Origin: a virus
Taxonomy: Duplodnaviria; Heunggongvirae; Uroviricota; Caudoviricetes
Reading direction: 5' to 3' (one strand)
IMG/VR virus record: IMGVR_UViG_3300032167_000057
Span: 4,886-68,885 of that record
Length of the DNA stretch: 64,000 nt
Part shown: positions 4,814 to 63,603 of the stretch, piece by piece
How positions within the stretch are numbered: position 1 is the stretch's first letter
Layout: the number at the start of each line of letters is the position of its first letter
Notes under the pieces: generated by a model
What the model was told of the DNA's origin: nothing
Database searches by the model: none
The model's input: only the letters and a program-made list of their open reading frames with translations
Translations under genes and position numbers: made by a program

Positions 4814-5521
4814 TTATTGTTTTATCTTTTTTTGAATTAAATTACGCAATTTGGTTTGATATTTATCATAATGAGTTGACCAATCAAATTCATGTGTATA
4901 AGTGGAAATCAGGGTTTGTAAAGTTGCTAACTCATGTCTATGATGTTTGTGTGACGCAATCAATGGGAGTTCGTTGATTTCATTTTCGTAAAATAGAATT
5001 GTTGCTACAATACATCTTTTATTTGGAAATAAAGCAATTAATCTCTGTTGATTACCTAAAACCATTTCAGCTATGGCTATCACTTTATTCGCAATTAATG
5101 CCTTTCTAAATAAATCATATCTTTCTTCAGATTGCATATCAGGTACTAAATAATAAGATTTATAAATTAATAAATCTCCTATTTCTTTAGATTTGCAAAA
5201 ATAACTTACAGTTAATTGTTTATCCTGTTCGGTAGTAATTGAATCAATTTCAGTTTGTTCCAATACAACATATTTATCTTTCGCATATTGATAACCTTTT
5301 ACAATATCTTCGTTTGTAATTTCTTTCTTACATGAAGGACAATATTTATGGTATCTCACTCTTTCCTTAGAATCTTTACATAATTGATTTAATTCAATAC
5401 TATTATCACAGTTAACTTTCATCATTTTTACTGGGATTTGTAAAGTTTGAAACCGTATAGTGGTTATATAAGAAGCGTTCATTTCATTATCTCCTTTGCA
5501 CGATTTGCATTTAGTATGCAT
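4814..5521 (-). CDS. Ku-like DNA end-binding protein (bacterial Ku/YkoV family, short form)
   Basis: SIELNQLCKDSKERVRYHKYCPSCKKEITNEDIVKGYQYAKDKYVVLEQTEID matches the bacterial Ku core (IRFHQ...R.RY.RVC..CG.EV...DI.KGYE...yV.ltd.ei). The N-terminal IRFQTLQIPVKMMKV resembles the Ku FGLVNIPVKLY beta-strand. Confidence 0.55.
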   Translation of the reverse strand: MHTKCKSCKGDNEMNASYITTIRFQTLQIPVKMMKVNCDNSIELNQLCKDSKERVRYHKYCPSCKKEITNEDIVKGYQYAKDKYVVLEQTEIDSITTEQDKQLTVSYFCKSKEIGDLLIYKSYYLVPDMQSEERYDLFRKALIANKVIAIAEMVLGNQQRLIALFPNKRCIVATILFYENEINELPLIASHKHHRHELATLQTLISTYTHEFDWSTHYDKYQTKLRNLIQKKIKQ

Positions 5522-7025: not shown

Positions 7026-7178
7026 TTTACCCTCCACTTTTGTCACATCTATATCCATTACATCACCTGTTGTGATATTTGAGGCAAACCATTTACGGGC
7101 CACATCTAACAGTTGTCCATCTTCCAGTTCACAAGTCACTATATTCTCTTCTATTCTAATTATTGTGAGTTTCATACT
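7026..7178 (-). CDS. small hypothetical protein (50 aa)
   Basis: Minus-strand ORF MKLTIIRIEENIVTCELEDGQLLDVARKWFASNITTGDVMDIDVTKVEGK, tightly coupled between the integrase and the 6316-7023 gene. Confidence 0.3.
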
Positions 7179-8574
7179 ATTCCTCGCTTTTGTAATATTC
7201 ATTATATATGTCTATATTGTTAATTATAATATCATTAATTGCAAGAGTTTTATTTATAGGAAGCTTAACAAGTTTTCCATTTTCAATATAGCCAAGCATT
7301 CCTTCTTCTATCTCTATTAGTGAAATACCCATTTTGCTCAATGATTCTACTACTCCTATAGGAGTAGTATTTACTTGCTTTTGAACATTGTTAAATAATT
7401 TGATAGCAGATGCTTTTTGAGCATTAATAATATGAACATATATATTTAACGTAATTTCTATACTAGAGTGTCCTAATAACTCACTGACAGTCTTAATATC
7501 AACGCCTTTAAGTATCAAATAAGAACCAAATGTGTGTCTTAAAGAATGTAATCCACTTTTCTTTATCTTGCAATTTGCATTCTTTTGCATAAGGTTTAAA
7601 GTGCGTGTAACATTACTATGATTGCTAATTGTAACCCCATCCTCAGTGAAAACATAATAATTAGGGTCTTGGTTTTTCCATAAACCTTTAAGAATTAATA
7701 AAGCAATGTCTGATAATGGAATGCTGCGCTCGCTAGAATATGTTTTAGTACCATCTGTATCTACATAAATATGTTTGGGTTTATCACCCTTTGGATTTCT
7801 TATTTTTGCAATAACGTGCGTTATTGTAATGATGTTTAGGTCTAAATTAACATCCTTCCATTTAAGTGCAAGAGCCTCAGATATACGCAAACCAGTATAC
7901 ATGATAAATATAACCATATGAGCATTTAGTCCATATTTGTTTCTACCAGTACTATGCATTTTTTGAAACTCATCATAGAGTTTTAACATATCTGATTCTT
8001 CTAAGAATGGTACTTTACGCCTTTTGGTTTTTACGTTCTTTTCAGAAGGAATGATGATGTCTTCCATATAATTACATGGAGCATACTTATCTGTTTCATA
8101 CATATACTCGCAAATCTGATTTAATAACGATTGCGTTCTTTTAATTGTACCTCTCGAATATTCTTTTTGCTTTACACAATAATCATCTATATAATCTTGG
8201 AAAATATCTTCGCTTAATGAAGCAATTTGAGTATTACCCAGAAATGTATCTTTAATTCGATTGTCTAACATATCTGCATACGAATCAATAGTTACTTGTT
8301 TTGTATCTGAACCATCATTAGGTTTTATATCTTCTATCCAATGCTTGCAATAATGATAGAATGTTTCCTGCTTAACATTCTTAGCATCGAATTTATGCTT
8401 ATCCTTATTTACTAATTCAAACTGTTCTCTCTTTTGATTAATTTCTTTTTCTGTTTTACCATAGAATGTGTGATAATCATCTTTCCAATCATAATACTTT
8501 CTATAGTATTTATATTGAACACCATTAATTGTACGAGTACCCCAATTACCTTCTCCGTTTTTTCTTTTAGCCAT
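7177..8574 (-). CDS. int: tyrosine integrase (phage integrase family)
   Basis: Catalytic signatures LRISEALALKWKDV (box I Arg) and HSLRHTFGSYLILKGVDIKTVSELLGHSSIEITLNIYVH (box II with the H-x-x-R...Y region). It sits next to the attP-like repeats and a tRNA. Confidence 0.9.
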   Translation of the reverse strand: MAKRKNGEGNWGTRTINGVQYKYYRKYYDWKDDYHTFYGKTEKEINQKREQFELVNKDKHKFDAKNVKQETFYHYCKHWIEDIKPNDGSDTKQVTIDSYADMLDNRIKDTFLGNTQIASLSEDIFQDYIDDYCVKQKEYSRGTIKRTQSLLNQICEYMYETDKYAPCNYMEDIIIPSEKNVKTKRRKVPFLEESDMLKLYDEFQKMHSTGRNKYGLNAHMVIFIMYTGLRISEALALKWKDVNLDLNIITITHVIAKIRNPKGDKPKHIYVDTDGTKTYSSERSIPLSDIALLILKGLWKNQDPNYYVFTEDGVTISNHSNVTRTLNLMQKNANCKIKKSGLHSLRHTFGSYLILKGVDIKTVSELLGHSSIEITLNIYVHIINAQKASAIKLFNNVQKQVNTTPIGVVESLSKMGISLIEIEEGMLGYIENGKLVKLPINKTLAINDIIINNIDIYNEYYKSEE

Positions 8575-8903: not shown

Positions 8904-8976
8904 GCTGATGTGGCACAGTCGGTAGCGCACTTCATTGGTAGTGAAGAGGTCACGGGTTCGATTCCCGTCATCAGCT
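8904..8976 (+). tRNA. tRNA-Thr (anticodon GGU)
   Basis: Acceptor stem GCTGATG/CATCAGC, T-arm ACGGGTTCGATTCCCGT, anticodon stem CTTCA/TGAAG with loop TTGGTAG. 73 nt including discriminator T. Confidence 0.8.
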
Positions 8977-8982
8977 TTAAAA

Positions 8983-9012
8983 ATAGGGAAGATATGCAAT
9001 CTTCCCTAAATT
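8983..9012. terminator. bidirectional hairpin terminator
   Basis: AGGGAAGAT-ATGCA-ATCTTCCCT hairpin flanked by T/A-rich tracts. It sits after the tRNA on the plus strand and after xis on the minus strand. Confidence 0.5.
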
Positions 9013-9227
9013 ATTATCTTCGTATTCATTTTAGCATTTTTACTTATCCAATCTATTAAATCATCTTCTGGGATATAATAATCTCTTCCAATCTTAAATT
9101 GAGGAAACCCCTTCGTATTTAATAATTTATATAGTGTTTTATCAGAAGCAATACCTAAATATTCTTTTACTTCCTTACTCTTTAATATGCGTTGTATATC
9201 TATCACACTCCTATTTATAAAACACAT
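9006..9227 (-). CDS. xis: excisionase / HTH DNA-binding protein
   Basis: 73 aa. KEVKEYLGIASDKTLYKLLNTKGFPQFKIGRDYYIPEDDLIDWI is the Xis/MerR-type HTH_17 fold. It is adjacent to attP and int. Confidence 0.6.
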   Translation of the reverse strand: MCFINRSVIDIQRILKSKEVKEYLGIASDKTLYKLLNTKGFPQFKIGRDYYIPEDDLIDWISKNAKMNTKIII

Positions 9228-9921
9228 GTCCTATATCATCTTTAAACACAAATGTTCTATTACGTTTAGCCCAACTATTTAAACCAGTATCAAACCATAA
9301 AGCACCATCAGTAGTATCTTCAAATAAAAAAGCATATTCAATTGCTAACACTGTAGAATAATCGATTTCAGTACGATGATAAGCAAACTGATTCTTACGA
9401 GTGATAACTTTACTCAAAGAGCCATTAATATCCGAAAATTCTGTATTAGCAACTCTATTTAATATAACATTGGCCACATTAACTTTAGAATCAAAATCGC
9501 CGTCATGTGTTTCTGTCTCTACCGCTCTTTGGAATAACTCAATCTCTTCATCTGTATATTCATCATAGACAGAATGAAACGGCATAACATACTCATCATA
9601 GTCTCGATATGCTTTTTTATATGCTAAAATATATGCTTGTCTATCATATTCTTTAATTGATTCTAGTGATGTAATTAACTCATTAAACTCTTGAATTTTT
9701 TTCTGTGCTTGAACTTGTTTAAGCTCCTGTAAAGTCGGTAACTGTTCTACTGTTCGTGTTTGCACTATCGGATAAGTAGAAATATGCGGTAAAATATCTA
9801 CAGGAGTAAATACAAAACGTAAAATTAATTGTATCCAGAACACCTGAAGAAGAATAATATTCAATATTTTATACATTTTTTCATTTAATTGAAGTGTTGG
9901 TAAATATCTACTTATGCTCAT
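9211..9921 (-). CDS. SleB-like cell-wall hydrolase (Hydrolase_2 family) with N-terminal TM anchor
   Basis: N-terminal hydrophobic helix. C-terminal VNVANVILNRVANTEFSDINGSLSKVITRKNQFAY matches the SleB/CwlJ core (vA.vvlNRv....fp.ti..Vv...gQF). Confidence 0.6.
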   Translation of the reverse strand: MSISRYLPTLQLNEKMYKILNIILLQVFWIQLILRFVFTPVDILPHISTYPIVQTRTVEQLPTLQELKQVQAQKKIQEFNELITSLESIKEYDRQAYILAYKKAYRDYDEYVMPFHSVYDEYTDEEIELFQRAVETETHDGDFDSKVNVANVILNRVANTEFSDINGSLSKVITRKNQFAYHRTEIDYSTVLAIEYAFLFEDTTDGALWFDTGLNSWAKRNRTFVFKDDIGHVFYK

Positions 9922-9945
9922 TCAGGCCTCCTTTGATACATAAAT

Positions 9946-10284
9946 TTACTCTTTTTTTATTTGAAAACTACGTATGATTATATGGTCGGGTAGTGGAGTC
10001 GCATCAAATTCTGAATATGCCCATCCCTCATCACCCCAATATAGAGTGCCATATGATATATCTTGTGTATTAATGTTTAAATACGTAATATCATAATATC
10101 CCGCTTCTGTTGGTATATAGGGTGCATACCATCTATCAGATTCTGGTTGGGGTTCATAATTATCATTGTCACCTTTATAACCTATCATCATGCGACAATT
10201 CGCACATTTTGGACTTAAATAATCGGTTTTTGTGTAATAACCACATGAAACACATGTACCACTTTCATTTGTTCCTTTACTCAT
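9946..10284 (-). CDS. hypothetical protein with N-terminal zinc-ribbon
   Basis: CVSCGYY...CANC motif; 112 aa. Confidence 0.4.
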   Translation of the reverse strand: MSKGTNESGTCVSCGYYTKTDYLSPKCANCRMMIGYKGDNDNYEPQPESDRWYAPYIPTEAGYYDITYLNINTQDISYGTLYWGDEGWAYSEFDATPLPDHIIIRSFQIKKE

Positions 10285-10286
10285 AG

Positions 10287-10832
10287 TTACCTCTCCTTAT
10301 CAATAATTCGTACCAGACGTTCTACTCCTTCTTCTAAAGTGCCATGATTTAAAATCCTGTACCAAATCAAGTTACTTTTTTCAAATTCGGTAAATTGCTG
10401 GTTTTCTGATTCATAGCGTTGTAAGTAAGAATCAATATTATCTTTTCTTTTTTTAGCCCGTTCAATTCCTTTAGTTTTACTTACTGTGATATAAATAGGT
10501 ATTAATTCAATATCTAATTCTTTTGTTTTCTCACTAAGTTCGTAATAACCATTAGGGTCAATAATGTAGATATCGCACTCCATTAATTGAGAGTATGTAC
10601 AAAAATATTGATAACCATTAATAACGGTGTATGCCATAATATCATCTCGATATTTATCTACTTCATCTTCGGTAATAAAAATATGGTCTGTTTCACCGTC
10701 CAGTTCGGCTGGTCTAGGAGGTCGTGTGGTATAAGAAGTAAGAATGGTTAAACCTAACTGTTTAGCTGCTTCTTTTGACAAGGTGGACTTCCCACTACTG
10801 CTTCTTCCCATTACACAAAATATTTTTTTCAT
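10287..10832 (-). CDS. guanylate kinase-like P-loop nucleotide kinase
   Basis: Walker A GRSSSGKSTL, and TTRPPRPAELDGETDHIFITEDE, which matches the guanylate kinase motif (TTRxPRxGEvdGxdYxFv). Confidence 0.7.
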   Translation of the reverse strand: MKKIFCVMGRSSSGKSTLSKEAAKQLGLTILTSYTTRPPRPAELDGETDHIFITEDEVDKYRDDIMAYTVINGYQYFCTYSQLMECDIYIIDPNGYYELSEKTKELDIELIPIYITVSKTKGIERAKKRKDNIDSYLQRYESENQQFTEFEKSNLIWYRILNHGTLEEGVERLVRIIDKER

Positions 10833-10833
10833 C

Positions 10834-11082
10834 TTATTTCTCCTTATAGAAAAATGGCTGTAACTGTGAGTTAAATCTTTCTAATACTGTCTCATCGTCA
10901 GAATCTAATGTTACTTCTACTGGCTCTTTACCACCTAATAAAATAACACCTAAAATTGATTTAGCATCAAAAGTTTTACCATTACGAGTAATAAAAGCTT
11001 TTTCTGCAAAAGAAGTAATAATATTAGCAAATTCCTGAATATCAGAAATTTTGTTTAAATATAAAGTAACTGTATTTTTCAT
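10834..11082 (-). CDS. HPr-like phosphocarrier-fold protein lacking the catalytic His15
   Basis: NGKTFDAKSILGVILLGGKEPVEV aligns to HPr NGKTVNLKSIMGVMSLG..GAEI, so the Ser46 region is conserved. The His15 region (GIHARPA) is replaced by ISDIQEFA, so there is no His. Confidence 0.65.
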   Translation of the reverse strand: MKNTVTLYLNKISDIQEFANIITSFAEKAFITRNGKTFDAKSILGVILLGGKEPVEVTLDSDDETVLERFNSQLQPFFYKEK

Positions 11083-11209
11083 AATTTGTTCTCCTCTCTC
11101 AACATAGTTTAGTAGTTCATTCGACTACATTATACAATTTTATTTCTATGTTGTGCAATATTTTTTTGTAGTTGCTTCAATTTTATTTTGCACTTAGTTA
11201 AATTTAGAA

Positions 11210-11755
11210 TTATTTTATCTTGTAACAATTCCAAATAACGGGTAATAATACCGTATCGCGTGCATGTAGCCAAGGTTTAGTTGTATCGCCAAAAGCGCCA
11301 TGTTCAGTTATCTGTACAAAATCGCCATGAACAATCTCAATCTTATAATCATTTATATTGTTATAAAAATCTTCTGGAATTTTTGTGCGGTCATGAGTTT
11401 GACCAAATAAGATATTATTCAGAACTTTAGAATAAAGATAAATAACAAATGTTGCTGTACCATCATGTGTAATGCGTTCAGAAGTTACATACTCAAAATC
11501 TGCATCGGGGTCATATTTGAGATGAATATTATAATTGGTAAGATGAAGCAGTTCTCCTACTTCATTCATCATTTCTCCTTCAGGTACTGTAACAATTATC
11601 TCATGAGTATCTTGATACCTTGTAATCACTTTGTTCGGTAAAAAATTCTGTGCCATTTCAAAAAAGGGTAATGAATGTATATTATAATCATCAGTCAATT
11701 GATAAGTATAATTGGGAGAATGTATTCGTTGTTGTACAAATCTTAATGAATTCAT
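11210..11755 (-). CDS. hypothetical protein
   Basis: 181 aa minus-strand ORF in the tightly packed operon; no motif recognised. Confidence 0.4.
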   Translation of the reverse strand: MNSLRFVQQRIHSPNYTYQLTDDYNIHSLPFFEMAQNFLPNKVITRYQDTHEIIVTVPEGEMMNEVGELLHLTNYNIHLKYDPDADFEYVTSERITHDGTATFVIYLYSKVLNNILFGQTHDRTKIPEDFYNNINDYKIEIVHGDFVQITEHGAFGDTTKPWLHARDTVLLPVIWNCYKIK

Positions 11756-11934
11756 CTAATTTCCTCCTCTTTATCAGGTATTTGGATTGACAATCGTGCA
11801 ATTTCTTTAATTGCTTGTAAATATGGACAATGTTCTAATTCTATCTCACTAGCGTTACAATAGCCTAATGAAGCTTTGCGGCAATATCTATGATATGCCA
11901 TATTACATTTACTAGGTGTCATCTGTACCTCCAA
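11752..11934 (-). CDS. small Cys-rich protein
   Basis: 60 aa with Cys/His spaced in a zinc-binding-like pattern; its stop overlaps the next gene's start. Confidence 0.3.
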   Translation of the reverse strand: MEVQMTPSKCNMAYHRYCRKASLGYCNASEIELEHCPYLQAIKEIARLSIQIPDKEEEIR

Positions 11935-11943
11935 GGCAATATA

Positions 11944-12741
11944 TTAATTAATTCTACTAATCTGTTCATATAGAAGAATATCTTTATCGTTTACAACATA
12001 ATTAATATGCATATGTCCACATAGGTGTTTATTAAACTCTGTCTTTTGTCGCACTTCCTCTAAATATGTAGTTAATATATCTTGGTTATATAAACCATGA
12101 CCCAATAGTGCAATTACACTAGCAGAAGGGCTATGTGTAATAATATAATCAACCTTATAATTATGTTTTCTTAAATTATTCCACCCATTCTGCATTTCTT
12201 CTTCTGAAGGAAGTTCGTGCTCCCACCAAGACAATCCTTTAATTTGATACATATATTTACCTTGCTTATCTAATGCCTTTGCTTTATCTCTCCAATCTTC
12301 ATCTTCATAATCAAGAATACCGTCTGAAATATCGTGAGAACTTGCACCGCCAAAAGCAAAGAATTTTTTATCTTCTATTGTAAATATTTCCCCTCTTCTT
12401 AATCGTAAAACGTGAGGACGTAGTTCATTAACCAATCCCCCATTCCATTCTTTAATTGGGAATGTGTCTAAACGAGGGATATTGTCATGATTACCATCTA
12501 CAAAAATAGTGGTAAACGGTTTTTCTTCTAACCAATCTAACAAATATTTTTCCTGTCTGGTTTCTTCTCTGTGCCATATAATTCCAAAATCACCAAGAAT
12601 AATGACTACATTTTCATCTTTATTGCCGCTAAACCCCTTTTGTTCATAAAAATTATCTGTACTAAATCTAACGGGGTTACCATGTATATCTCCCGTTACC
12701 CAAATAGACATAATAATCACCTCTTTTCTGTGTATAGACAT
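11944..12741 (-). CDS. calcineurin-like metallophosphoesterase (Ser/Thr phosphatase family)
   Basis: Motifs VTGDIHGN, GDFGIIW (GDxxDRG-like) and GNHDN. Confidence 0.75.
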   Translation of the reverse strand: MSIHRKEVIIMSIWVTGDIHGNPVRFSTDNFYEQKGFSGNKDENVVIILGDFGIIWHREETRQEKYLLDWLEEKPFTTIFVDGNHDNIPRLDTFPIKEWNGGLVNELRPHVLRLRRGEIFTIEDKKFFAFGGASSHDISDGILDYEDEDWRDKAKALDKQGKYMYQIKGLSWWEHELPSEEEMQNGWNNLRKHNYKVDYIITHSPSASVIALLGHGLYNQDILTTYLEEVRQKTEFNKHLCGHMHINYVVNDKDILLYEQISRIN

Positions 12742-12788
12742 TAAACCAAACCCGTTGTGAATAATCTTCTTTAGCGTGGTTCAAGAGT

Positions 12789-13184
12789 TTATATCTGTCT
12801 CGTTTTTTCATTTTTCTTTCCTCTATAATTATAACAATCAATTTTTTTATTAAGTTCTTCATATAAAGGATGATTGACACCAATTATAATACCTAATTCT
12901 TCTAGTCCATCTTCTGAATTGAAACAATAATAAAAACGCTTGTTATCATTTTGTATTGCGCGCGCCTGTTCTGCTGTTAGATTCATGTTTTTTATCCTCA
13001 TTTTTCTATCTTCAATTATTTCACTCATACCAAAAAATAGAGTTCCGATGCCCGCCCCAACAGCATAAGCATATGTTACTATATCTGTACGACTTAGTAC
13101 TACACCTGAGCAAATCATATAAAGTAAGAACCCGCCCCAACGTAATAGATACCAACCAATTGTTTTATTATTAATTTTTTTCAT
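12789..13184 (-). CDS. membrane protein
   Basis: 131 aa with two or three hydrophobic helices. Confidence 0.4.
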   Translation of the reverse strand: MKKINNKTIGWYLLRWGGFLLYMICSGVVLSRTDIVTYAYAVGAGIGTLFFGMSEIIEDRKMRIKNMNLTAEQARAIQNDNKRFYYCFNSEDGLEELGIIIGVNHPLYEELNKKIDCYNYRGKKNEKTRQI

Positions 13185-13518
13185 AAATATAATCCTCCGT
13201 CCCTCTTAACGACTGTTTCATCATTTCGCAAAAATCCAATATAAATTCTTCTAATCCGTCAACTCGATGCTCTAAATAACGTAAACCACAACTCTCAAAT
13301 TCAAATCCGTATTCTTTTGAATTCCAAGTTAAAGTTGCTATAGTGAAACAATGTCTGTAGCTTATTCGTTTTTCGCCAGTATAAAAATCTGTAACTTCAT
13401 GTGGTATATGGTCTTCCCATTTAATCAAATCAAATTTAAACGGTTCAAAATGACCATCTAAATATGTGGGTGCTCTGAATTGAAAACCATTCCATTCTTC
13501 TGTATATACTCTTACCAT
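13171..13518 (-). CDS. hypothetical protein
   Basis: 115 aa ORF, translationally coupled to its neighbours. Confidence 0.4.
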   Translation of the reverse strand: MVRVYTEEWNGFQFRAPTYLDGHFEPFKFDLIKWEDHIPHEVTDFYTGEKRISYRHCFTIATLTWNSKEYGFEFESCGLRYLEHRVDGLEEFILDFCEMMKQSLRGTEDYIYEKN

Positions 13519-16474: not shown

Positions 16475-17263
16475 TTACTCAAATACCGATTTAAAAGCTT
16501 CTAAATTACCATCTCTACCACTTGGAATTGCGAATACAACTTTTCTAAAACAATTCTTATACGTTGTTTCTAAACACTCCTTAAAAATCATTGCGACTTC
16601 TACAGGATTCTGTCCGAACACACCACAACCATATGCCCCTAAGATAAGTACTTCCACTTCATTATCCTTTGCAATATCAAGTACAAATTTAATTCTTGAT
16701 TTTAAAACTTTTGTATTCTCTGTATCAGAAACATTCTGATACTTTTGCGCCGCTGATTTGTTGGGAGCTGCACATGTAATTACGTCACGATAGATTTCAG
16801 ACCCATCATATTGAAATACAATATTCGGGGTATATAAACCACGATTCAAATATAACGCTTTGTTCTTATGCTGATTATTCCAATCATAAAAATCTTTAAC
16901 AAACTGAGATAGAACATTATATAAGTAAGAATCATGACACAAACATTCTTCCTGCGCTTTACTACCATTAAGAAACATACCACCAGGATTCTTGTATGAT
17001 GAAAAATTTAGTAATGCAGTTTTACCATCTGAGTATTTACCGGATGCCATAACCGTATCCGCATCTGCAACTATGATTTTTGTAGGTTCTTCTAATTCGT
17101 TTACAATATCTCCGTTACATATAAAATCAGTATCATAAATTTTAGTATTCTTGATGGATTGTGTAATTTTATCTCCGTGTAATTTCTGCATTTCAGTAGT
17201 ATGTTTTCTTGCTCTCTGTGCTCTTTGGTCTTTGTTTTCCCAATATTCTTTTATATATGCCAT
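16475..17263 (-). CDS. bacterial-type poly(ADP-ribose) glycohydrolase-like macrodomain protein (DUF2263/TIGR02452-like)
   Basis: NPGGMFLNGSKAQEE matches the PARG signature GGG-x(6-8)-QEE. LILGAYGCGVFGQNP is the macrodomain diphosphate-binding loop. Confidence 0.6.
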   Translation of the reverse strand: MAYIKEYWENKDQRAQRARKHTTEMQKLHGDKITQSIKNTKIYDTDFICNGDIVNELEEPTKIIVADADTVMASGKYSDGKTALLNFSSYKNPGGMFLNGSKAQEECLCHDSYLYNVLSQFVKDFYDWNNQHKNKALYLNRGLYTPNIVFQYDGSEIYRDVITCAAPNKSAAQKYQNVSDTENTKVLKSRIKFVLDIAKDNEVEVLILGAYGCGVFGQNPVEVAMIFKECLETTYKNCFRKVVFAIPSGRDGNLEAFKSVFE

Positions 17264-21675: not shown

Positions 21676-22524
21676 CTAACTGCTTTCGCAGTTTGGACTA
21701 TATCTTCATCTATTATTCTATTACCAAATAATAGATGCTCGGCACTTCCACATAAGGACTTTCACCTTATATGTACTCTACTCGCTTCTTCGCATAAGTT
21801 TTTCTCTTATGCTATGCTTTCGATAGTCTCTTGACTTTCTTCAACGTATTCAAATAAATAATCATAATTATTAGTTAATTTTTCATCTTTTAATATCATG
21901 GTTACTGTCTTTCTATTAATATGTAAATCTTCACACATACTTCTTATAGATTTATAAGTTTTAAAATATTTACCATTTTTCTTATAATAGACGTTTATCG
22001 CATGACATCTTGACTTATATTTATATAATTTGTTATCATAACCATGTTGGGTGTTATCACTATTTGTACACCACTCTAAGTTATCTATATTATTATTTAA
22101 CTTATTTCCATCTTTATGATTGACTTGTGGTAGATTATTTGGATTAGGAATAAACGTATTGGCGACCAACCTATGTACACGTTTATAACATTTCTTACCA
22201 TTTGAATCTCTTAAAACACATTGGTAATACCCAACGGTATCTATCCACTGACCAATTTCTTTGTTTCGTTTAGTATCATAAATCACACCGTTAATGTTGA
22301 TTCGATATCTCTCAAAACCTTGAATTTCTTTATTTATAATTATTGTTTCTATATAAAATTCACCTTCTTTAAAAGTGAATACGTTGAATATTAGCACAGG
22401 ATTATCATAATAATGACTTCCCCTGTTAGCCAATTCATTAGCCATCATTTCCTATGGTTACTATTCGTTGAATTGACACCTTATATATATAAGTTCACCG
22501 AGTTTTACATGAGCTATCATATTA
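21676..22524 (-). mobile_element. group I self-splicing intron in nrdD carrying an HNH homing endonuclease ORF
   Basis: Exon 1 ends ...SPMG (GGU) at 22525 and exon 2 starts CRAF at 21675; a direct join recreates the conserved NrdD SPMGCRSF junction. The S element AAGATATAGTC lies about 20 nt upstream of the terminal G (UAG) on the minus strand, and the 849-nt insert contains the HNH ORF. Confidence 0.8.
21807..22448 (-). CDS. HNH homing endonuclease (intron-encoded)
   Basis: NHKDGNKLNNNIDNLEWCT is an HNH motif. The N-terminal DNA-binding region is typical of phage HNH homing endonucleases. The ORF sits inside the nrdD intron. Confidence 0.8.
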   Translation of the reverse strand: MMANELANRGSHYYDNPVLIFNVFTFKEGEFYIETIIINKEIQGFERYRININGVIYDTKRNKEIGQWIDTVGYYQCVLRDSNGKKCYKRVHRLVANTFIPNPNNLPQVNHKDGNKLNNNIDNLEWCTNSDNTQHGYDNKLYKYKSRCHAINVYYKKNGKYFKTYKSIRSMCEDLHINRKTVTMILKDEKLTNNYDYLFEYVEESQETIESIA

Positions 22525-23727
22525 ACCCATTGGACTAATCACTCTTTTATATTTCTTATACATTTCAGGTACATATCCATTACCAGTTAAAGATAACCAA
22601 TCAGGATACATGGTTTTACTACTACAATCAATTCCTGCATTAAATACATCTGCATTTGGATACTGTTCAGAACCATCTCCGTGAAGTTCTTTATCATATA
22701 AGAATACAATCTTAGGGAATAAAACAGGACGCTTAAATCCTTTCTTACCTTGGCCCTCACTATGTACTTGGAGTAAAGTAATAGCGGCCATTTTGCCAAA
22801 TATATCTGTTGCTAATCCTATAGTCATGGTAACGAATGGGTAATCGCCCCTAGAAGAACCAACTGTATTTAACTTATATTCAATGCCTTGCCAACCTTGT
22901 TCAAAGTCTCTTCTGACTTTATCAAGAGCATATTTTATAGCTCCTTCGTCTTTAACTCGACCATTCCAAGACACTTGACTTAATACATCATTTTCAACTT
23001 TTCTATATTCTTCAATATATTTTCTATAAGACTTCTCTGCATAAGGTGCTAAAATCTTATCAACTTCTGGTACAGTAAACCCTCCGTATTGCTGTGCAGC
23101 TGTTGAAAGGATAATATCTCCCATAACATCGAATGCAGTATCAAGTGAATTAGGCTCGTTATACCAAACGTTCCCCATTTCAAAACCGTTATGCATAATA
23201 TGGCCTACACGCATCAAACAGCAATTAAAGGAATCAAGTCTAGCACTCCTATCATGGATATAGATGTACCCATCTTTCATTGCTTGCTTTTCATCAAGTG
23301 TTAAGAAAAACTTCTTATATAATTCACTGCTCAGTTCGTTATAAATTAAACTTCTCTTTGTTGCCACCAAAGCAGAATCAGTATTAGCATTACTCTTATC
23401 ACCAATGTATCTAATTGCTTGACTTCTGGCGTATACTTTATCCATCATATGAACAAAGTCTTTTTTATAATTTCTATATTCTTTATACATTTTCCCCACT
23501 ATTGGATATAATTCTTCCAATACGGCTTCAACGATATTATGCATTTCATAAATTTCAGTTTCTTCTAAATCATTTTCAACGAGTTTTTCCCAGACGGCGT
23601 TACAAATCAACTGATAATCATTAGCATTTAATTCTACCATTGCTCGTCTAGCAGCTTTATTACAAGCATTAATTATTTTTTGTTCATTATAATCTTCTAA
23701 TGTGCCATCTTTTTTAATAATCCTCAT
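22525..23727 (-). CDS. nrdD: anaerobic ribonucleoside-triphosphate reductase NrdD, exon 1 (N-terminal ATP-cone + catalytic core)
   Basis: ATP-cone MRIIKKDGTLEDYNEQKI. YIYIHDRSARLDSFNCCLM...QQYGGFTVPEVDKILAPY aligns to T4 NrdD IIHVHDIDYS..NCCLV...HQYGGTTFANVDKVLSPY. Ends at MYPDW...SPMG. Confidence 0.9.
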
Positions 23728-27257: not shown

Positions 27258-28712
27258 CTAGATTTGAAGTCGCTCTGCTTGTACAATTAATTCCTTTTCA
27301 TCCGTAACTTCTACAATTTTGTTAATGGTGTGATTAAAAATCGAATCGTTATACACTTTTAAGAAGAATTGGTCTCCCATTCTCATACCATGACATAATA
27401 AAAGCGTTCCTCGTTTTAACCAACTTTCTTCCAATCTTTTCTTTTTACCATTCTCTTCTGATACCTGAGATATGGTTTTGTTATAATAAGCATAAGCTCC
27501 CTTATTTGTTTTTACTGTTACTACTCCATATCTAGTCAATAAAGTAAATGAATGATGATTATTATCATTCGCTAATACTGTTCCAGCCAAACGGCTAATT
27601 TTATATTTAGGAAACGCTCGTGGTTCTCCGTTAATACGACGGGTGTACCACTCATAAGGTTCTGGTTCTTCTGGTAAATCAAAGTAATTGACAATTCCAT
27701 AATGCTTTTCATCTACCCCGTCTAACTCATGTTCCGCATCATAATAGCTTAATGCTTCCATATTCCAATGAGGTACTGTACCAGAAGCGTGTTTCTCCCA
27801 TAATTCATTAAATAGTTTTTGATTGTATAAGTTTAGTGTTTCTTCTTTACTCATCCAATCTCTAAACGTTTTTAATTTGGTTTCGACTTCTTTCAAGAAG
27901 TTCTTTTCAGAGATAACATAATACGAATTCTTCACTTCAATTACTGCATCTTCGGAGAAATTAGCCACGAAAAATGATTGAGAATTGCTATCTAATAGAA
28001 AATATCTGTCATGATAACCGCACTTCGGAACTTTTTTATCTGGGTTTACATATAATCTATCTAACCCATCTGGATGTAAAACATAATCTTTAAAGTTCAG
28101 AATACGTATAATAATGTCAAACTCATCAGGAATCATTTTCATTTCAACCATTTTACCCATTTGAGACATGGTGAGATTATCACATGGTTTAAACACATAA
28201 TTTTCTAAATATAACCGCATAGTTTTAGTACGGTCTGTATTGTGTAGTTCGGTAAAACTACCGCCTTTGATTAACTTAATCATTTGTGCATTTGTGAGTA
28301 ATTTGGTGACGATAAGTTTGTCACAGAAATCTTGAAATGAATTATATGGTCGGTGCTCTAGAATTGTTTGTACTGCTTCTGTTCCGATTCCATTGATTGC
28401 TTTAAGACTGAATAAGATACGATTATTTTGTTTATCCACTTTAAAACCAAAATCCGCTTCATTAATAAGTGGTAAAGCTACTTCTGTACCACTCTGTTTA
28501 ATTGAAGCAATAGCCGTAGACATTTTTCCATAGTTAGTTCCATCGTTTGCATCTTCATTATATGACCCAGAATCTACAACCAAATTGGCCGCAGACCAAT
28601 AGATTGAACCATATTTATAACATAAATTCAGTTCCTGCAATCCCAATAAACTGTAAGCAAGACAATGAGAACGATTAAATCCATCATTTATACCCCCGAT
28701 TTCTCGGTATTT
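27258..28712 (-). CDS. dnaE: DNA polymerase III alpha subunit (DnaE-type), exon 2 (C-terminal part; exact 5' boundary uncertain)
   Basis: Upstream of the annotated TTG start the frame reads ...GFNRSHCLAYSLLG, which matches DnaE YGFNRSHAVAYS. The HhH region AINGIGTEAVQTILEHRPYNSFQDF is also present. The frame is open back to a TAG at 28713-28715. Confidence 0.75.
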   Translation of the reverse strand, partial: KYREIGGINDGFNRSHCLAYSLLGLQELNLCYKYGSIYWSAANLVVDSGSYNEDANDGTNYGKMSTAIASIKQSGTEVALPLINEADFGFKVDKQNNRILFSLKAINGIGTEAVQTILEHRPYNSFQDFCDKLIVTKLLTNAQMIKLIKGGSFTELHNTDRTKTMRLYLENYVFKPCDNLTMSQMGKMVEMKMIPDEFDIIIRILNFKDYVLHPDGLDRLYVNPDKKVPKCGYHDRYFLLDSNSQSFFVANFSEDAVIEVKNSYYVISEKNFLKEVETKLKTFRDWMSKEETLNLYNQKLFNELWEKHASGTVPHWNMEALSYYDAEHELDGVDEKHYGIVNYFDLPEEPEPYEWYTRRINGEPRAFPKYKISRLAGTVLANDNNHHSFTLLTRYGVVTVKTNKGAYAYYNKTISQVSEENGKKKRLEESWLKRGTLLLCHGMRMGDQFFLKVYNDSIFNHTINKIVEVTDEKELIVQAERLQI

Positions 28713-28965
28713 CTATAGGGATTAGACTATATCTTTAGAGTAAAATACTCTATTCGGCACTTCCATCTGTGCTAATCTCAGATGTACGTAATAGTCGTTA
28801 CACCTTCCTTATGTATAAGGCTTGGCACGGTATTACCTTATCTTACGACTTAGGCTTTCACCGTTAGCATAACAAAAATGTTACACACCGTTTTTGCATA
28901 CGTTCACCGAATTTTACGTGAGCAGGTTTGTTTACCCACGTTGCATGAAAATTAATACAAACCAC
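28713..28965 (-). mobile_element. ORF-less group I intron in dnaE (boundaries approximate)
   Basis: A roughly 260-nt non-coding insert splits DnaE between the conserved ...IEKFA and GFNRSH segments. It contains the S element AAGATATAGTC (minus strand 28735-28725) and shares with the nrdD intron a 12-mer (TCGGCACTTCCA on the plus strand), CTTTCACC and similar spacing to a terminal UAG. Confidence 0.65.
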
Positions 28966-31421
28966 ACATAACGAATTAATTTATTTGATAATTGTTTTTC
29001 TTTTGCGTTTTGTAAAAATTCCTGCTGTAATATTTCAAAATCTTTTGGAGACTTCTTCGCTACAGATTTTCTCAACTTGTCTGCCCATGCTAATGAAAAA
29101 CCACCAATCTTAGGATGCATAACTAACAGAAATAAGTATTCCTGCGCTTCACAAATACCATAGGAAATACCTAAAATATCCTTTAATATATCTTGTTCTT
29201 CCTCTGTAAGTCCCATACTAGACATTTCCTGATACCATAAATTAATATCATTTTTAAATCTAGCATACTTCTCAAGCGGTGCTTCCCCACCCTTTTCTTG
29301 TGCCATAAGTCTCATAACTGAGTTTAAAGCTGCTAAATCATCTACTGAATGTGGTTTTGATAACGAAATGGCTTGAATCCCCGAAGCCTTCTCCATCTGG
29401 AAAAAGCTTAATACTTTATGTTCCCACAGTAATTTCCACATTTCTTCTGCATCACGTTCTAAAGTATATATACCTAAATACTTTTCATAAGTATCTTTGA
29501 GAGTTCCTTGCCACTCAATAACACCATCCTCTAATAGTAAATTCATACAAGCATGAATCTTGTCGAGTGCTTCTACAGACAGACAGTCGAATTTAATTAA
29601 TGATAATTTTTCACATTCATGTAAATCAAATTGAGTAATAATATCTCCTGAATTGGTTTTCATCTGTGCTGCTACTTCTGTAAATGGTTCATCTGTTAAA
29701 ATAATGCCCCCAGCATGAGAACCTACCCCATTTACCAAACCTTCAAACTTCTGTGCACACTCCCATAATTCAGGGTATCTTTCCATTTCACGAACAAATT
29801 CCATTACAGGGCGGTTATCTTCATCTCCAAAATACATCTGTTTAAAGGAACGTAATTGTCCTCTATCTGCTACAATTAATGAAGATATATACTGTGCCGT
29901 ATCATTATCTATACCCAATCCTCTAGCACTGGTTAAAATAGCACTACGTGGTTTTTCGGTAGATAACGTCATAACTTTACTAATTCTATCTGCACCATAA
30001 GTGTCACGGAATTTTCGCATAACCGCTTCTCGTTTAGAACCCTCAATATCTACATCAATATCTAATGGCGACGCACGTTCGGGATTTAAAAATCTCCAGT
30101 GAAATGTTTTCGTTTTTTCTTTTAAAGGGTTAATCTGTGTAATATTTAATATATAATTTAGAATAAATCCTACACCAGAACCTCGGCCACATCCTACTAA
30201 TGATACTTCCCATAAGAGTTCTACAATATCTTTAACATCTAATAAATAGGCCGACCAACGTACTTTCATCTTATCCGAAGCAATAATTAATGAATCCAAA
30301 CATTCTGCAATTGCCTCATAAGTTTCTGTGTTGCAAAGTTCTTTTGGCTTTCTTTCCAGTTCATTCACGATTTCTCTACACAAATGTCTATCTGGCTCAT
30401 ATTCAGAAAGGAAGAAATAATCCAAATGAGGAATCAATGGTTGATATTTTTTGAATAAAGATGGGTCTGGTTCAGATGAATTAAATGGTACATACGGAAT
30501 ACGCATCGGTTTGCGCAGGTCATATATTTGCACCATATCATAAATCAATAAAGTATTATCCAGACCTCTTTGTACCGCTTCTTTCCCTATATAAGCATCC
30601 ATAAAGTCATGAATTTCTTCCGAAGTCATCACATAAGTTGTTTCATAAAAATCATCAACTTCTCTATCTCCGTCCTGACTTTCTAAAAAGATTTTGTGGA
30701 ATTTTCTATCTTCTTTCTTTAAGTAATGGGAATCCGTGCTGATAATATAAGGCGTGTTTGTGATTTCAGATAAGCGAATTAGATATTGATTAACTATAAT
30801 CTGTTCCATTTTAGGCGAAGGTTGTAATTCCAAAAAGAAATAACCTTGTCCAAAAATTTCATTCATATATTCAACCCAACTAATACATGCGCCCCATAAT
30901 TCGGGGTCTTTTGTGGCTTCAAATTCCAATATTTTGGCAGGTAAAATACCTCCCAAGCAAGCAGAAGAACCGATAATATGACCTTTATATGTCTCCAACA
31001 TAGTTTCTAATTCGTCATAATATGTTGGTACACGCATCATAACATTCATAAAAGCATTGTTTAACCATGATTGTGTACTTAATTCTCTAATACCCTTATG
31101 TCCAAAAGAATCTAAAGCCAGTAATATAAAGTGCGGATATTTCTGTCCTTTCTTATTTTCTGGTGTTACATCACGAGTGCATAAATAGATTTCATTTCCC
31201 AAACCTATTTTAAAATCTACCCATTCTGGATTATCTTTATGGCTATAGAAATATTCTATTGCCGATAAGCTAGAAGTGACTGATTCATGTCCTGTTAGGC
31301 AAATTCCTTTTAAACCTATATCATGTGCATATTGGATAATATCTGATACCTTGTTAATTGAATCACGTATACGCAAATTACTATCTCGGTCTGTGTGGTT
31401 GTGTATACTAAAATAACTCAT
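28966..31421 (-). CDS. dnaE: DNA polymerase III alpha subunit (DnaE-type), exon 1 (PHP + palm/fingers)
   Basis: N-terminal PHP domain MSYFSIHNHTDRDSNLRIRDS (HxH). LLALDSFGHKGIRELSTQ resembles DnaE LLAKNEEGYKNL. The 3' end of the annotated ORF (IRYVWFVLIFMQRG) is probably read-through into the intron. Confidence 0.8.
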
Positions 31422-34348: not shown

Positions 34349-34413
34349 AGCTCGTTCTCCTTTTTAATAAAATTTAATGATTAATAGTTAATAATATGGA
34401 ATACAATTCCTTA

Positions 34414-34485
34414 CTCCCCTTGCTGGATTCGAACCAGCGCTCCTCGGGTCAAAGCCGAGTTCCTTAACCGCTTGGATAAAGGGGA
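34414..34485 (-). tRNA. tRNA-Gln (anticodon UUG)
   Basis: Minus-strand TCCCCTT-TA-TCC-AAGCGGTTAA-GGA-A-CTCGG-CTTTGAC-CCGAG-GAGCG-CTGGTTCGAATCCAG-C-AAGGGGA-G. The acceptor and anticodon stems pair well. Confidence 0.75.
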
Positions 34486-34658
34486 AAATTATTTGCGTTT
34501 TTTATTGTTAGCCGCAACCCTAACATAACTTATATAAAGTTTAAAGAAATGAATTAAAGAAAGGAGGTATTTAAGATGTGCCAAAACTTTCTGTCTCATA
34601 CATCTTACATTTACATTATACAATTTTTAATTTAGTATGTTCATTTTATTTTAGTAAT

Positions 34659-45267: not shown

Positions 45268-46305
45268 TTAATCTTTAGCCATGACAAAACCATCATGAAT
45301 TTGTTTAACAATGATATCGGCCGAACGCTGTTTTACATCAGAATCATTCATAACTACATAACGCTGGGTAGTACTAATATTAGAATGACCTACCGCTCGT
45401 CGTGCAAATTCTATATCTCCAGTTTCCTTTATAATATTAGTTACAAATGCATAACGTATTTTATGCGGTGAAATCCCTTCGCCTAAAACCGCTTCTGAGT
45501 ATTTATGAACAATTTCTGCTATACTATCTGTTGATAATCGCGCTTTTTGTCGAGAAATAAATAACGCATCCAGCTGAACACCCCATTCACGCAACAGTTC
45601 TTCTCTATCATATAACCAATCATTTACATATTGCATAATGGAACTGATTTGATAAACATGGGTTTTTCGCCCCTTATCAATAACTGTTAATTCTCCCGTT
45701 TCCAAATTAATATCTTCTACATTAATTTCGCTTAACGCACTACGACGCATACCAGTCAAAATAAATAATAATAAAATCAAGAAATCTCTTGATTTCCATT
45801 TATTCTGAATTTTACGAGCTCGTGTAGAACCAGCCCCAAATAATACAGCGCCCAACATTTGTTGCAATTCATCAGGAGTAATCTCAGGCCGTTGTACCTT
45901 ATCTTCTCCTTTTGGACGTTTAATTTCTGTTATTGGATTAATTTCGATTAACTTATTTGAGTATAAATACCCCATAAAGTTTTTTAATACAGTATAAATT
46001 AACTGTTGATAAAAAATTGATGTGGGAGTAACTTTAGCAACACCATTTTGTATAACCGTTTTGGTCTTTTTAGCAACCATATAACGTGCTACATTCTGTG
46101 CTGCTTCTTCTGGTGTCACTGTGGTTGAATCTTCTTTTATACTTTTATAAAAGTTCTCAATTATTCCAATATATTTATGAGCAGTTTTAATTTGAGCACC
46201 ATAAGAAAAAGAATAACAATAATCTTTTACATATTGAGGCAGACTTTCTAATTTTTTATCAATTTTATCCTGATAACATAATTGAGTTTCAAATCTACCA
46301 TTCAT
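45268..46305 (-). CDS. tyrosine recombinase (XerC/D-like, second phage-integrase-family enzyme)
   Basis: RRSALSEINVEDINLETGELTV (box I Arg) and HKIRYAFVTNIIKETGDIEFARRAVGHSNISTTQRYV (H-x-x-R ... Y). Confidence 0.8.
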   Translation of the reverse strand: MNGRFETQLCYQDKIDKKLESLPQYVKDYCYSFSYGAQIKTAHKYIGIIENFYKSIKEDSTTVTPEEAAQNVARYMVAKKTKTVIQNGVAKVTPTSIFYQQLIYTVLKNFMGYLYSNKLIEINPITEIKRPKGEDKVQRPEITPDELQQMLGAVLFGAGSTRARKIQNKWKSRDFLILLLFILTGMRRSALSEINVEDINLETGELTVIDKGRKTHVYQISSIMQYVNDWLYDREELLREWGVQLDALFISRQKARLSTDSIAEIVHKYSEAVLGEGISPHKIRYAFVTNIIKETGDIEFARRAVGHSNISTTQRYVVMNDSDVKQRSADIIVKQIHDGFVMAKD

Positions 46306-63487: not shown

Positions 63488-63531
63488 ATGTCCTCCTTTA
63501 AAATAAGTATTTTATTTTTCCTTTCGGAAAG

Positions 63532-63603
63532 TGACTCTCTGTGGATTCGAACCACAGTCTTTGCACTGAGAATGCAACGTCTTAACCTCTTGACTAGAGA
63601 GCC
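63532..63603 (-). tRNA. tRNA-Glu (anticodon CUC)
   Basis: On the minus strand: GGCTCTC-TA-GTC-AAGAGGTTAA-GAC-G-TTGCA-TTCTCAG-TGCAA-AGAC-TGTGG-TTCGAAT-CCACA-GAGAGTC-A. The stems pair well. Confidence 0.7.

Follow-up and report, generated by a model that had tools for sequence, protein, structure and literature searches.

A histidine-less HPr-like protein of a large phage belongs to an HPr paralogue family shared with Clostridia

The HPr-type proteins known from textbooks to regulate carbon metabolism in bacteria are HPr, Crh, and NPr. Here we describe an HPr-like protein without a single histidine that is encoded in a 64,000-nucleotide stretch of phage DNA (IMG/VR record IMGVR_UViG_3300032167_000057, positions 4,886 to 68,885); this whole stretch is referred to as the window. 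The window is part of a large phage, with genes for a DNA polymerase, a primase, DnaB-like and RecD-like helicases, NrdD, and an endolysin as well as for three tRNAs. Its sequence is also found in metagenomic contigs 131-139 kb in length, and gene calls on these identical contigs are consistent with the mechanical list of open reading frames (ORFs) used here; a near-identity DNA search with positions 9000-13500 identified no close relative among deposited phages. The gene for the HPr-like protein is located in a tight run of minus-strand ORFs at 9.2-12.8 kb, together with genes for a guanylate-kinase-like (GK-like) P-loop kinase and a metallophosphoesterase (Table 1). A first-pass annotation of this DNA had proposed that these three genes form a phage module that mimics HPr phosphorylated at Ser46 (HPr-Ser-P), possibly with its own kinase and phosphatase. 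The motifs quoted in support of that proposal are present in the ORFs, i.e., NGKTFDAKSILGVILLGGKEPVEV in the HPr-like protein, GRSSSGKSTL and TTRPPRPAELDGETDHIF in the GK-like protein, and VTGDIHGN and GNHDN in the metallophosphoesterase.

Several lines of evidence identify the 82-aa product as almost certainly a genuine HPr-fold protein, as judged by profile comparisons and a predicted structure. The Pfam family PF00381 (PTS-HPr) matched the ORF at 23.0 bits, a value equal to its gathering score (E 8.2e-5), while the score for the narrower TIGR01003 model fell short of its cut-off (30.6 vs. 47.9 bits); the best single-sequence matches in the PDB were to Bacillus subtilis Crh (E 3.5e-3). A word-index protein search recovered only the query itself, and the contigs that encode exactly this protein are all copies of the same phage. 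When 1.8 billion cluster representatives were searched exhaustively with HMMER, 57 small proteins were identified at E<=1e-3, all of which match PF00381 (best 2e-14), and a profile built from these 57 relatives reached 6e-13 for Crh and approximately 1e-9 for many HPr chains. Alignment to B. subtilis HPr with hhalign gave a probability of 97%, with the aligned part confined to HPr residues 22-74. An AlphaFold2 (AF2) model computed with the family alignment had a mean predicted local distance difference test score (pLDDT) of 94.3 and a predicted template modeling score (pTM) of 0.83, and showed the beta-alpha-beta-beta-alpha-beta-alpha order of HPr; the top 39 Foldseek matches of this model in the PDB were all HPr or Crh, with template modeling (TM) scores of 0.65-0.71 for most HPr structures.

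Comparison of individual residues indicates that the two sides of the HPr interaction surface have had different fates. In the hhalign register, residue i of the window protein corresponds to HPr residue i+4, so that His15 is matched by Lys11, Arg17 by Ser13, and Ser46 by Ser42, the last within a helix reading D39-A-K-S-I-L-G45. The Ser46 helix is the face that HPr kinase/phosphorylase (HprK/P) recognizes. Among 95 dereplicated relatives, Lys45 and Ser46 (HPr numbering) are invariant (95/95), and Ile47 (79), Met or Leu48 (92), Gly49 (84), and Phe, Leu, or Met51 (79) are highly conserved. Loci retrieved with back-translated DAKSIMG patterns have this motif fixed by the search itself; claims of invariance are thus based on the 57 HMMER representatives, in which the Lys-Ser pair is likewise invariant. 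The S-I-M-G motif is, by sequence comparison, the form found in HPr and Crh of Gram-positive bacteria, unlike the S-L-F-K of Escherichia coli. By contrast, the beta1-alpha1 turn, which reads G-x-H-A/T-R-P in PtsH, could not be aligned with HPr, and none of the 95 dereplicated members provides a conserved His at position 15 or Arg at position 17. Position 15 is occupied by Thr, Ser, Lys, or Asn; position 17 is most often Glu (24), Asp (22), or Ser (17) on the phage side (n=95) and Asp (46), Asn (19), or Glu (13) on the chromosomal side (n=93), with Arg or Lys in only 4/73 phage-side and 0/119 chromosomal-side distinct cores. Positions 16, 17, and 20, which in HPr are part of the Enzyme I interface along with the beta1-alpha1 turn and the start of helix 1 (PMC8509676), are not conserved in the family. 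HPr binds CcpA through an interface made up of alpha1, alpha2, and the beta1-alpha1 turn, in which Ile47, Met48, Met51, and phosphorylated Ser46 make the contacts (PMC10287919). The sequence comparison therefore describes a protein with an intact Ser46 helix and a rebuilt beta1-alpha1 turn and helix 1 start, i.e., one left with half of the HPr interaction surface. Because it contains no histidine, the protein is predicted to be unable to serve as a phosphotransferase system (PTS) carrier by the known mechanism. The HPr fold, the loss of His15, and the consequent inability to carry PTS phosphate had all been put forward in the first-pass annotation and are borne out by the predicted structure and by the residues found; its further statement that the surface used by HprK/P and CcpA is retained holds for the helix-2 half and fails for the beta1-alpha1 turn and helix 1 start, which do not align and in which Arg17 is replaced.

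A search of species genomes with a back-translated DAKSIMGIF pattern yielded at least 120 matching genomes, all from Clostridia (Lachnospiraceae, Oscillospiraceae, and other Clostridia of gut and rumen), including isolates of Faecalicatena orotica, Hespellia stercorisuis, Dorea ammoniilytica, Butyrivibrio, Lactonifactor, and Pseudobacteroides cellulosolvens. An HPr-like ORF of approximately 77 aa was present in 118 of the 120 listed loci, so that no fewer than 118 species genomes of Clostridia carry it; PWJ23513.1 of F. orotica and WP_029231829.1 of Butyrivibrio are two such chromosomal members. The chromosomal copy is a solitary gene on the opposite strand among housekeeping genes, and its conserved neighbors encode, by NCBIfam assignment, MtaB, ThiI, a NifS-type cysteine desulfurase, RsmE, PrmA, IreB, and RuvX; no gene for a GK-like protein, Hydrolase_2, metallophosphoesterase, dUTPase, NrdD, ThyX, or integrase was found near any of the listed chromosomal loci. 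Chromosomal copies lack both His15 and Arg17, with Ser or Thr at position 15 in 84/93 and Asp, Asn, or Glu at position 17, and their 90%-identity clusters comprise 700-1800 sequences labeled just "HPr family phosphocarrier protein". The window protein scored 69.8 bits against a hidden Markov model (HMM) of phage copies, from which its own cluster had been left out, and 46.9 bits against an HMM of chromosomal copies, as compared to 43.5 and 35.2 bits for B. subtilis Crh and 40.9 and 30.7 bits for HPr; because its scores exceed those of Crh and HPr, we place it in the histidine-less family and with neither of these two. By this sequence-based assignment, the window protein is a member of a large "DAKSIMG" family of HPr paralogues without His15 and Arg17. 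Tandem arrangements also occur among relatives; P0004, a metagenomic protein of 157 aa, is a fusion of two histidine-less HPr-like domains, each with G-K-S-L-M-G, and the loci L227 (4096-4509) and L238 (4369-4731) each contain two copies of the motif approximately 330-390 bp apart.

On the phage side, family members were present in 147 of 158 gathered loci, mostly IMG/VR contigs and many of them 100-200 kb in length, and every metagenomic contig with a family member that was looked up had a phage context. Within these genomes of approximately 100-200 kb, the gene is found in the early or nucleotide-metabolism region. While tblastn searches of deposited phages with the window protein and with P0068 gave no match, a family-consensus query identified 11 records, including cultured, virulent phages of Enterocloster bolteae; the copy in one of these, WDQ45469.1 of PMBT24, was automatically annotated as "phosphocarrier protein HPR", and the PMBT24 genome paper makes no mention of the gene. 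No PHROG was matched by the members of the family (0/57), and BFVD contains three gut-virome entries with the same fold (TM up to 0.89). In UniProt, one BFVD entry with this fold (A0A8S5PSI8, 81 aa, TM 0.82) bears the name "Catabolite control protein A", which was almost certainly mis-transferred. At least 39-42 divergent phage clusters have kept the HPr-like gene, and the identity between phage copies has a median of 34%. In a rough neighbor-joining tree, which is indicative only as it was built on 84 columns, some phage and chromosomal copies are interleaved, 9 of 34 phage representatives have a chromosomal copy as nearest neighbor, and the window copy falls into a deep phage-only group or grade; this pattern suggests that exchange of these genes between phages and hosts has been old and repeated.

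With regard to expression, the gap upstream of the HPr-like gene contains, as the best sigma-70-like match on the coding strand, TGCACA-17-TATAAT at 11157-11129. Promoter-like sites are not enriched over shuffled sequences in this region (26 found vs. 28.9 expected), and the match, while consistent with a promoter, is no proof of one and was not counted as evidence for expression. A GGAGA Shine-Dalgarno sequence is located approximately 8 nt before the ATG of the HPr-like gene; its TAA stop codon is followed after one base by the ATG of the GK-like gene, for which an AAGGAGA is available inside the end of the HPr-like ORF. The GK-like protein is thus probably co-translated with the HPr-like protein, as had been supposed on first annotation, where coupling remains a plausible reading of this junction.

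Table 1. Features of the window, with Hydrolase_2 genes of three related loci
Feature	Position	Strand	Assignment or remark
Ku-like gene	4814-5521	-	Pfam match on identical contig L001
Tyrosine integrase	7177-8574	-	Part of run
tRNA-Thr (GGT) and the hairpin after it	8904-9008	+	Between integrase and HTH_17 gene
Perfect 10-bp hairpin	8984-9008		After tRNA-Thr
HTH_17 gene	9006-9227	-	Part of run
SleB-type Hydrolase_2 (C-terminal domain), 236 aa	9211-9921	-	PF07486 4.6e-10
Cys-rich ORF, 112 aa	9946-10284	-	ORF list
GK-like P-loop nucleotide kinase, 181 aa	10287-10832	-	PF00625; phrog_1815
HPr-like protein, 82 aa, no histidine	10834-11082	-	PF00381; AF2; Foldseek
Intergenic region, 127 bp, upstream of HPr-like gene	11083-11209	-	Promoter-like match and Shine-Dalgarno sequence
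181-aa ORF, function unassigned	11210-11755	-	ORF list
60-aa ORF	11752-11934	-	ORF list
Metallophosphoesterase, 265 aa	11944-12741	-	PF00149 8e-9; phrog_1649 1.3e-32
Microbial PARG-like (poly-ADP-ribose glycohydrolase) gene	16475-17263	-	Pfam match on identical contig L001
NrdD-like ORF	22522-23727	-	Profile positions 4-392 of 718 only
DNA polymerase, smaller ORF	27258-28646	-	phrog_405 positions 804-1100
DNA polymerase, larger ORF	28932-31421	-	phrog_405 positions 42-781
tRNA-Gln	34413-34486		
Second tyrosine recombinase	45268-46305	-	
tRNA-Glu	63531-63603		
Hydrolase_2 in L014	4318-4971		
Hydrolase_2 in L023	5542-5988		
Hydrolase_2 in L011	3848-4546		

The GK-like protein matches PF00625 over nearly its full length (33.7 bits vs. 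a cut-off of 25.2; residues 4-179, profile positions 4-181 of 182) as well as phrog_1815 (1.9e-36). It shares with phrog_1815 and cellular Gmk the full-length GK fold, the P-loop, and the nucleoside monophosphate (NMP)-binding motif TTRPPRPxExDG; unlike Gmk, it remains far below the equivalog level (TIGR03263, 42.3 bits vs. a cut-off of 160.45), and the guanine-binding Glu of I-E-W-A reads as Ala in the alignment. Its base specificity thus probably differs from that of Gmk. PDB matches were guanylate kinases throughout, library matches at or below 1e-5 were nucleotide kinases or the nucleotide-related PhnN, and neither the PDB nor the family libraries gave a match to a protein kinase at any E-value. 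GK-like genes were found in 68 deposited phage records and are common in Staphylococcus, Bacillus, and Clostridioides phages; the overlap of these 68 records with the 11 records that contain the HPr-like gene is a single genome (MT835469.1), and six cultured Enterocloster phages carry the HPr-like gene with no GK match.

Linkage was assessed by calling ORFs in all loci, scoring neighbors with iterated HMMs, clustering the HPr-like proteins at 80% identity (42 clusters), and counting genes within a 3-kb radius. By this measure, NrdD was present in 15/26 clusters, GK-like in 12/28, integrase in 12/26, dUTPase in 11/27, Hydrolase_2 in 8/25, nucleoside deoxyribosyltransferase in 7/24, ThyX in 5/25, and metallophosphoesterase in 3/24. 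The GK-like gene directly adjoins the HPr-like gene in only 2 of the 42 clusters, namely that of the window (1-nt gap) and L011 (28 bp); in other clusters it is found 0.7-2 kb downstream, within the order HPr-like, ThyX, GK, deoxyribosyltransferase, NrdD, NrdG, dUTPase. The proximity of the GK-like gene is non-random because both genes belong to a nucleotide-metabolism block, and the GK-like protein is, as judged by its relatives and its company, a (d)NMP-kinase-type enzyme of that block and not a dedicated protein kinase. No ThyX match was obtained in the window itself, whose three ORFs of no assigned function are restricted to its own HPr-like cluster. In some relatives (L011 1375-2472, L021 37-1215, and L014 5469-6149), a class-V aminotransferase/cysteine-desulfurase-like gene and ThyX are found near the HPr-like and GK-like genes; this combination of a pyridoxal-phosphate enzyme, ThyX, and a P-loop kinase is reminiscent of a cluster for hypermodification of a DNA base (thymidine).

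The metallophosphoesterase has the superfamily motifs GDxHG and GNHD in common with lambda-type phosphatases of the phosphoprotein phosphatase (PPP) family. It differs from these by reading GDFGIIW, not GDxVDRG, at motif II and by a C-terminal GHxH motif, and its best family is the generic phrog_1649; a phmmer search found no PDB chain at E<=1. Assignment as a PPP Ser/Thr phosphatase was hence rejected, as the protein has no GDxVDRG, no PDB relative, and a match to PF00149 only at the superfamily level. None of the 12 phage records with this metallophosphoesterase is among the records with the HPr-like gene, and the gene is, to judge by its motifs and distribution, a generic phage gene unrelated to the HPr-like protein. 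It had been placed two genes upstream of the HPr-like gene; it is in fact the third ORF upstream, with the 181-aa and 60-aa ORFs in between. As a separate observation, the commonest immediate neighbor of phage HPr-like genes is a Hydrolase_2 gene of the SleB ("spore cortex-lytic") type, which is located directly upstream (13-34 bp) in L014, L078, L023 (PMBT24), and L107, and less than 1 kb downstream in the window and in L011; none was found beside the chromosomal copies in the listed loci.

Other features of the window include the tRNA-Thr region, which could represent an attachment site or a phage tRNA, and the seemingly split DNA polymerase. The NrdD-like ORF covers only part of its profile, and the anaerobic ribonucleotide reductase of the window looks split or interrupted; in the relative L018 (1-2845), a gene for an HNH_3 endonuclease is present between two NrdD pieces.

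We propose that the HPr-like protein is a small regulatory binding protein that would work through its conserved helix-2 (Ser46) face, and that would most likely still be tied to the branch in which HprK/P reports carbon status through seryl phosphorylation, where it would be a substrate or a pseudo-substrate that competes; CcpA is not necessarily its output partner. The phage copy would be expressed alongside early and nucleotide genes and might supply or override the signal of the host paralogue early in infection, with the adjacent genes being ordinary phage genes. Taken as a whole, this reading is in our judgment evenly balanced, and for its most specific component, the link of the family to seryl phosphorylation by HprK/P, our confidence is lower still, at roughly one in three. 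That link is favored because the PTS partners are gone, yet something must constrain the Ser46 face, and because S-I-M-G is the Gram-positive HPr/Crh form. A number of observations weigh against the proposal. Bacteria that have no HprK/P, e.g., Vibrio cholerae, likewise conserve Ser46 in their HPr (PMC10287919), and Ser42 begins helix 2 in the AF2 model, so that the invariant Lys-Ser pair could be structural. Replacement of Arg17 by acidic or polar residues brings a negative or neutral charge to the site that the phosphohistidine would occupy and resembles the phosphohistidine state of HPr, in which phosphorylation of His15 antagonizes phosphorylation of Ser46 and blocks CcpA binding (PMC3526391); by this analogy, the replacement argues against canonical recognition by HprK/P and CcpA. 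Finally, a nucleotide-related role could instead be the reason why the gene is so regularly found among those for NrdD, ThyX, and dUTPase.

The self-contained module of the first-pass annotation, in which the GK-like protein would phosphorylate Ser46, the phosphoesterase would remove the phosphate, and the product would mimic HPr-Ser-P, draws on the 1-nt spacing of the two genes and on the presence of the GK-like gene downstream on the same strand within 3 kb far more often than the few per cent of clusters expected for a random pair. Direct adjacency is nonetheless limited to two clusters, and NrdD and dUTPase are linked equally often; the GK-like and HPr-like genes mostly occur in different deposited phages, in both directions; the relatives of the putative kinase act on nucleotides; the putative phosphatase is rarely near and lacks both PPP motif II and a PDB relative; and the chromosomal family has neither neighbor in the listed loci. 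These linkage data largely refute a kinase/substrate/phosphatase module, which we regard as most improbable: the supposed trio is not a conserved one, the neighbors are essentially ordinary phage genes, and, as the protein belongs to a histidine-less family also found in host chromosomes, any mimicry would be of that paralogue and not of HPr. It is also unlikely that the protein is an equivalent of Crh, with host HprK/P phosphorylating Ser46 and the seryl-phosphorylated form imposing catabolite repression in the course of infection as a co-repressor for CcpA. In favor of this, the best PDB sequence match is to Crh, and the CcpA-contacting Ile47, Met or Leu48, and hydrophobic residue 51 are conserved along with Ser46; however, the A16-R17-P18 segment kept in Crh is missing from the histidine-less family, the turn and helix 1 that have been rebuilt belong to the CcpA interface, HPr is kept from binding CcpA by negative charge at the His15 site (PMC3526391), and the family forms its own clade, with the window protein outscoring Crh on the family HMMs.

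A role as a regulatory or adaptor subunit for an enzyme of the nucleotide block (NrdD/G, ThyX, GK-like, or deoxyribosyltransferase) or for the Hydrolase_2 protein, of phage or host, would explain the frequent presence of NrdD, dUTPase, and GK-like genes within 3 kb and the close Hydrolase_2 genes in four clusters including PMBT24, as well as in the window and L011. Since the chromosomal copies have no such neighbors, the core function of the family cannot depend on them, and gene order shared within one phage lineage may be passed down with no functional link behind it; we know of no HPr-fold regulator of any of these enzymes, and consider such a role improbable. The HPr-like gene might also be a passenger, i.e., a host gene captured by phages with no selected role in infection, as the interleaving of phage and chromosomal copies in the rough tree suggests repeated transfers. 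This possibility appears very doubtful, given that the gene is kept across divergent phage clusters with the motif invariant and the fold intact throughout, that the group of the window is a deep phage-only grade, that a strong ribosome-binding site and a promoter-like site precede the gene, and that it is present in virulent cultured phages.

A literature search on phage HPr, HPr-like, and ptsH found no phage system of this type, in agreement with the first-pass annotation, and no functional study of the histidine-less family. The gene class is already in databases under automatic names, and represents an apparently unstudied class of paralogue in which His15 and Arg17 are gone, the Ser46 helix is almost invariant, and the gene is conserved in a housekeeping locus of Clostridia. 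Its recurrence in gut phages, including cultured E. bolteae phages, provides a tractable entry to what this paralogue controls, and work on the phage copies could show whether phages manipulate host carbon-status signaling in the gut microbiome. The analysis also removes a tempting over-reading, in that the "kinase" and "phosphatase" next to the HPr-like gene are of ordinary kinds for a phage, one for nucleotide metabolism and the other for a phosphoesterase. A more far-reaching possibility, speculative and on balance doubtful, is that a third HPr-type class, distinct from both HPr and Crh, is common to Clostridia and their large phages, with the Ser46 face frozen and the His15/Arg17 face remodeled for a new partner. 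Phages would repeatedly capture this protein to hijack a so far unrecognized carbon- or energy-status branch and would put its gene at the start of the nucleotide-metabolism block, often next to a SleB-type hydrolase gene; in the lineage of the window, the translationally coupled GK-like protein might even act on it.

Among known systems, HPr (PtsH) itself shares with the window protein the overall fold, a PF00381 match that is at threshold for the latter, and a Gram-positive-like Ser46 region; unlike PtsH, the window protein has neither His15 nor Arg17, falls below the TIGR01003 cut-off, and does not conserve the Enzyme I contacts. The "Crh" of Thermoanaerobacterium (PMC3526391) was considered as a possible member of the histidine-less family and rejected, as it is a true Crh orthologue. 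B. subtilis Crh is the closest parallel in kind, as it has in common with the histidine-less family the HPr fold, the absence of His15 and of a PTS role, and a Ser46 helix of the form N/D-A-K-S-I-M-G. Crh, however, retains the loop G-L-Q15-A-R17-P, whereas the histidine-less family does not align there and has Asp, Glu, Ser, or Asn at position 17. The two also differ in distribution and location: B. subtilis crh lies in the yvc operon, while the histidine-less family occurs not in Bacilli but in Clostridia and in phages of Clostridia, with its chromosomal members at the mtaB/thiI/ruvX locus.

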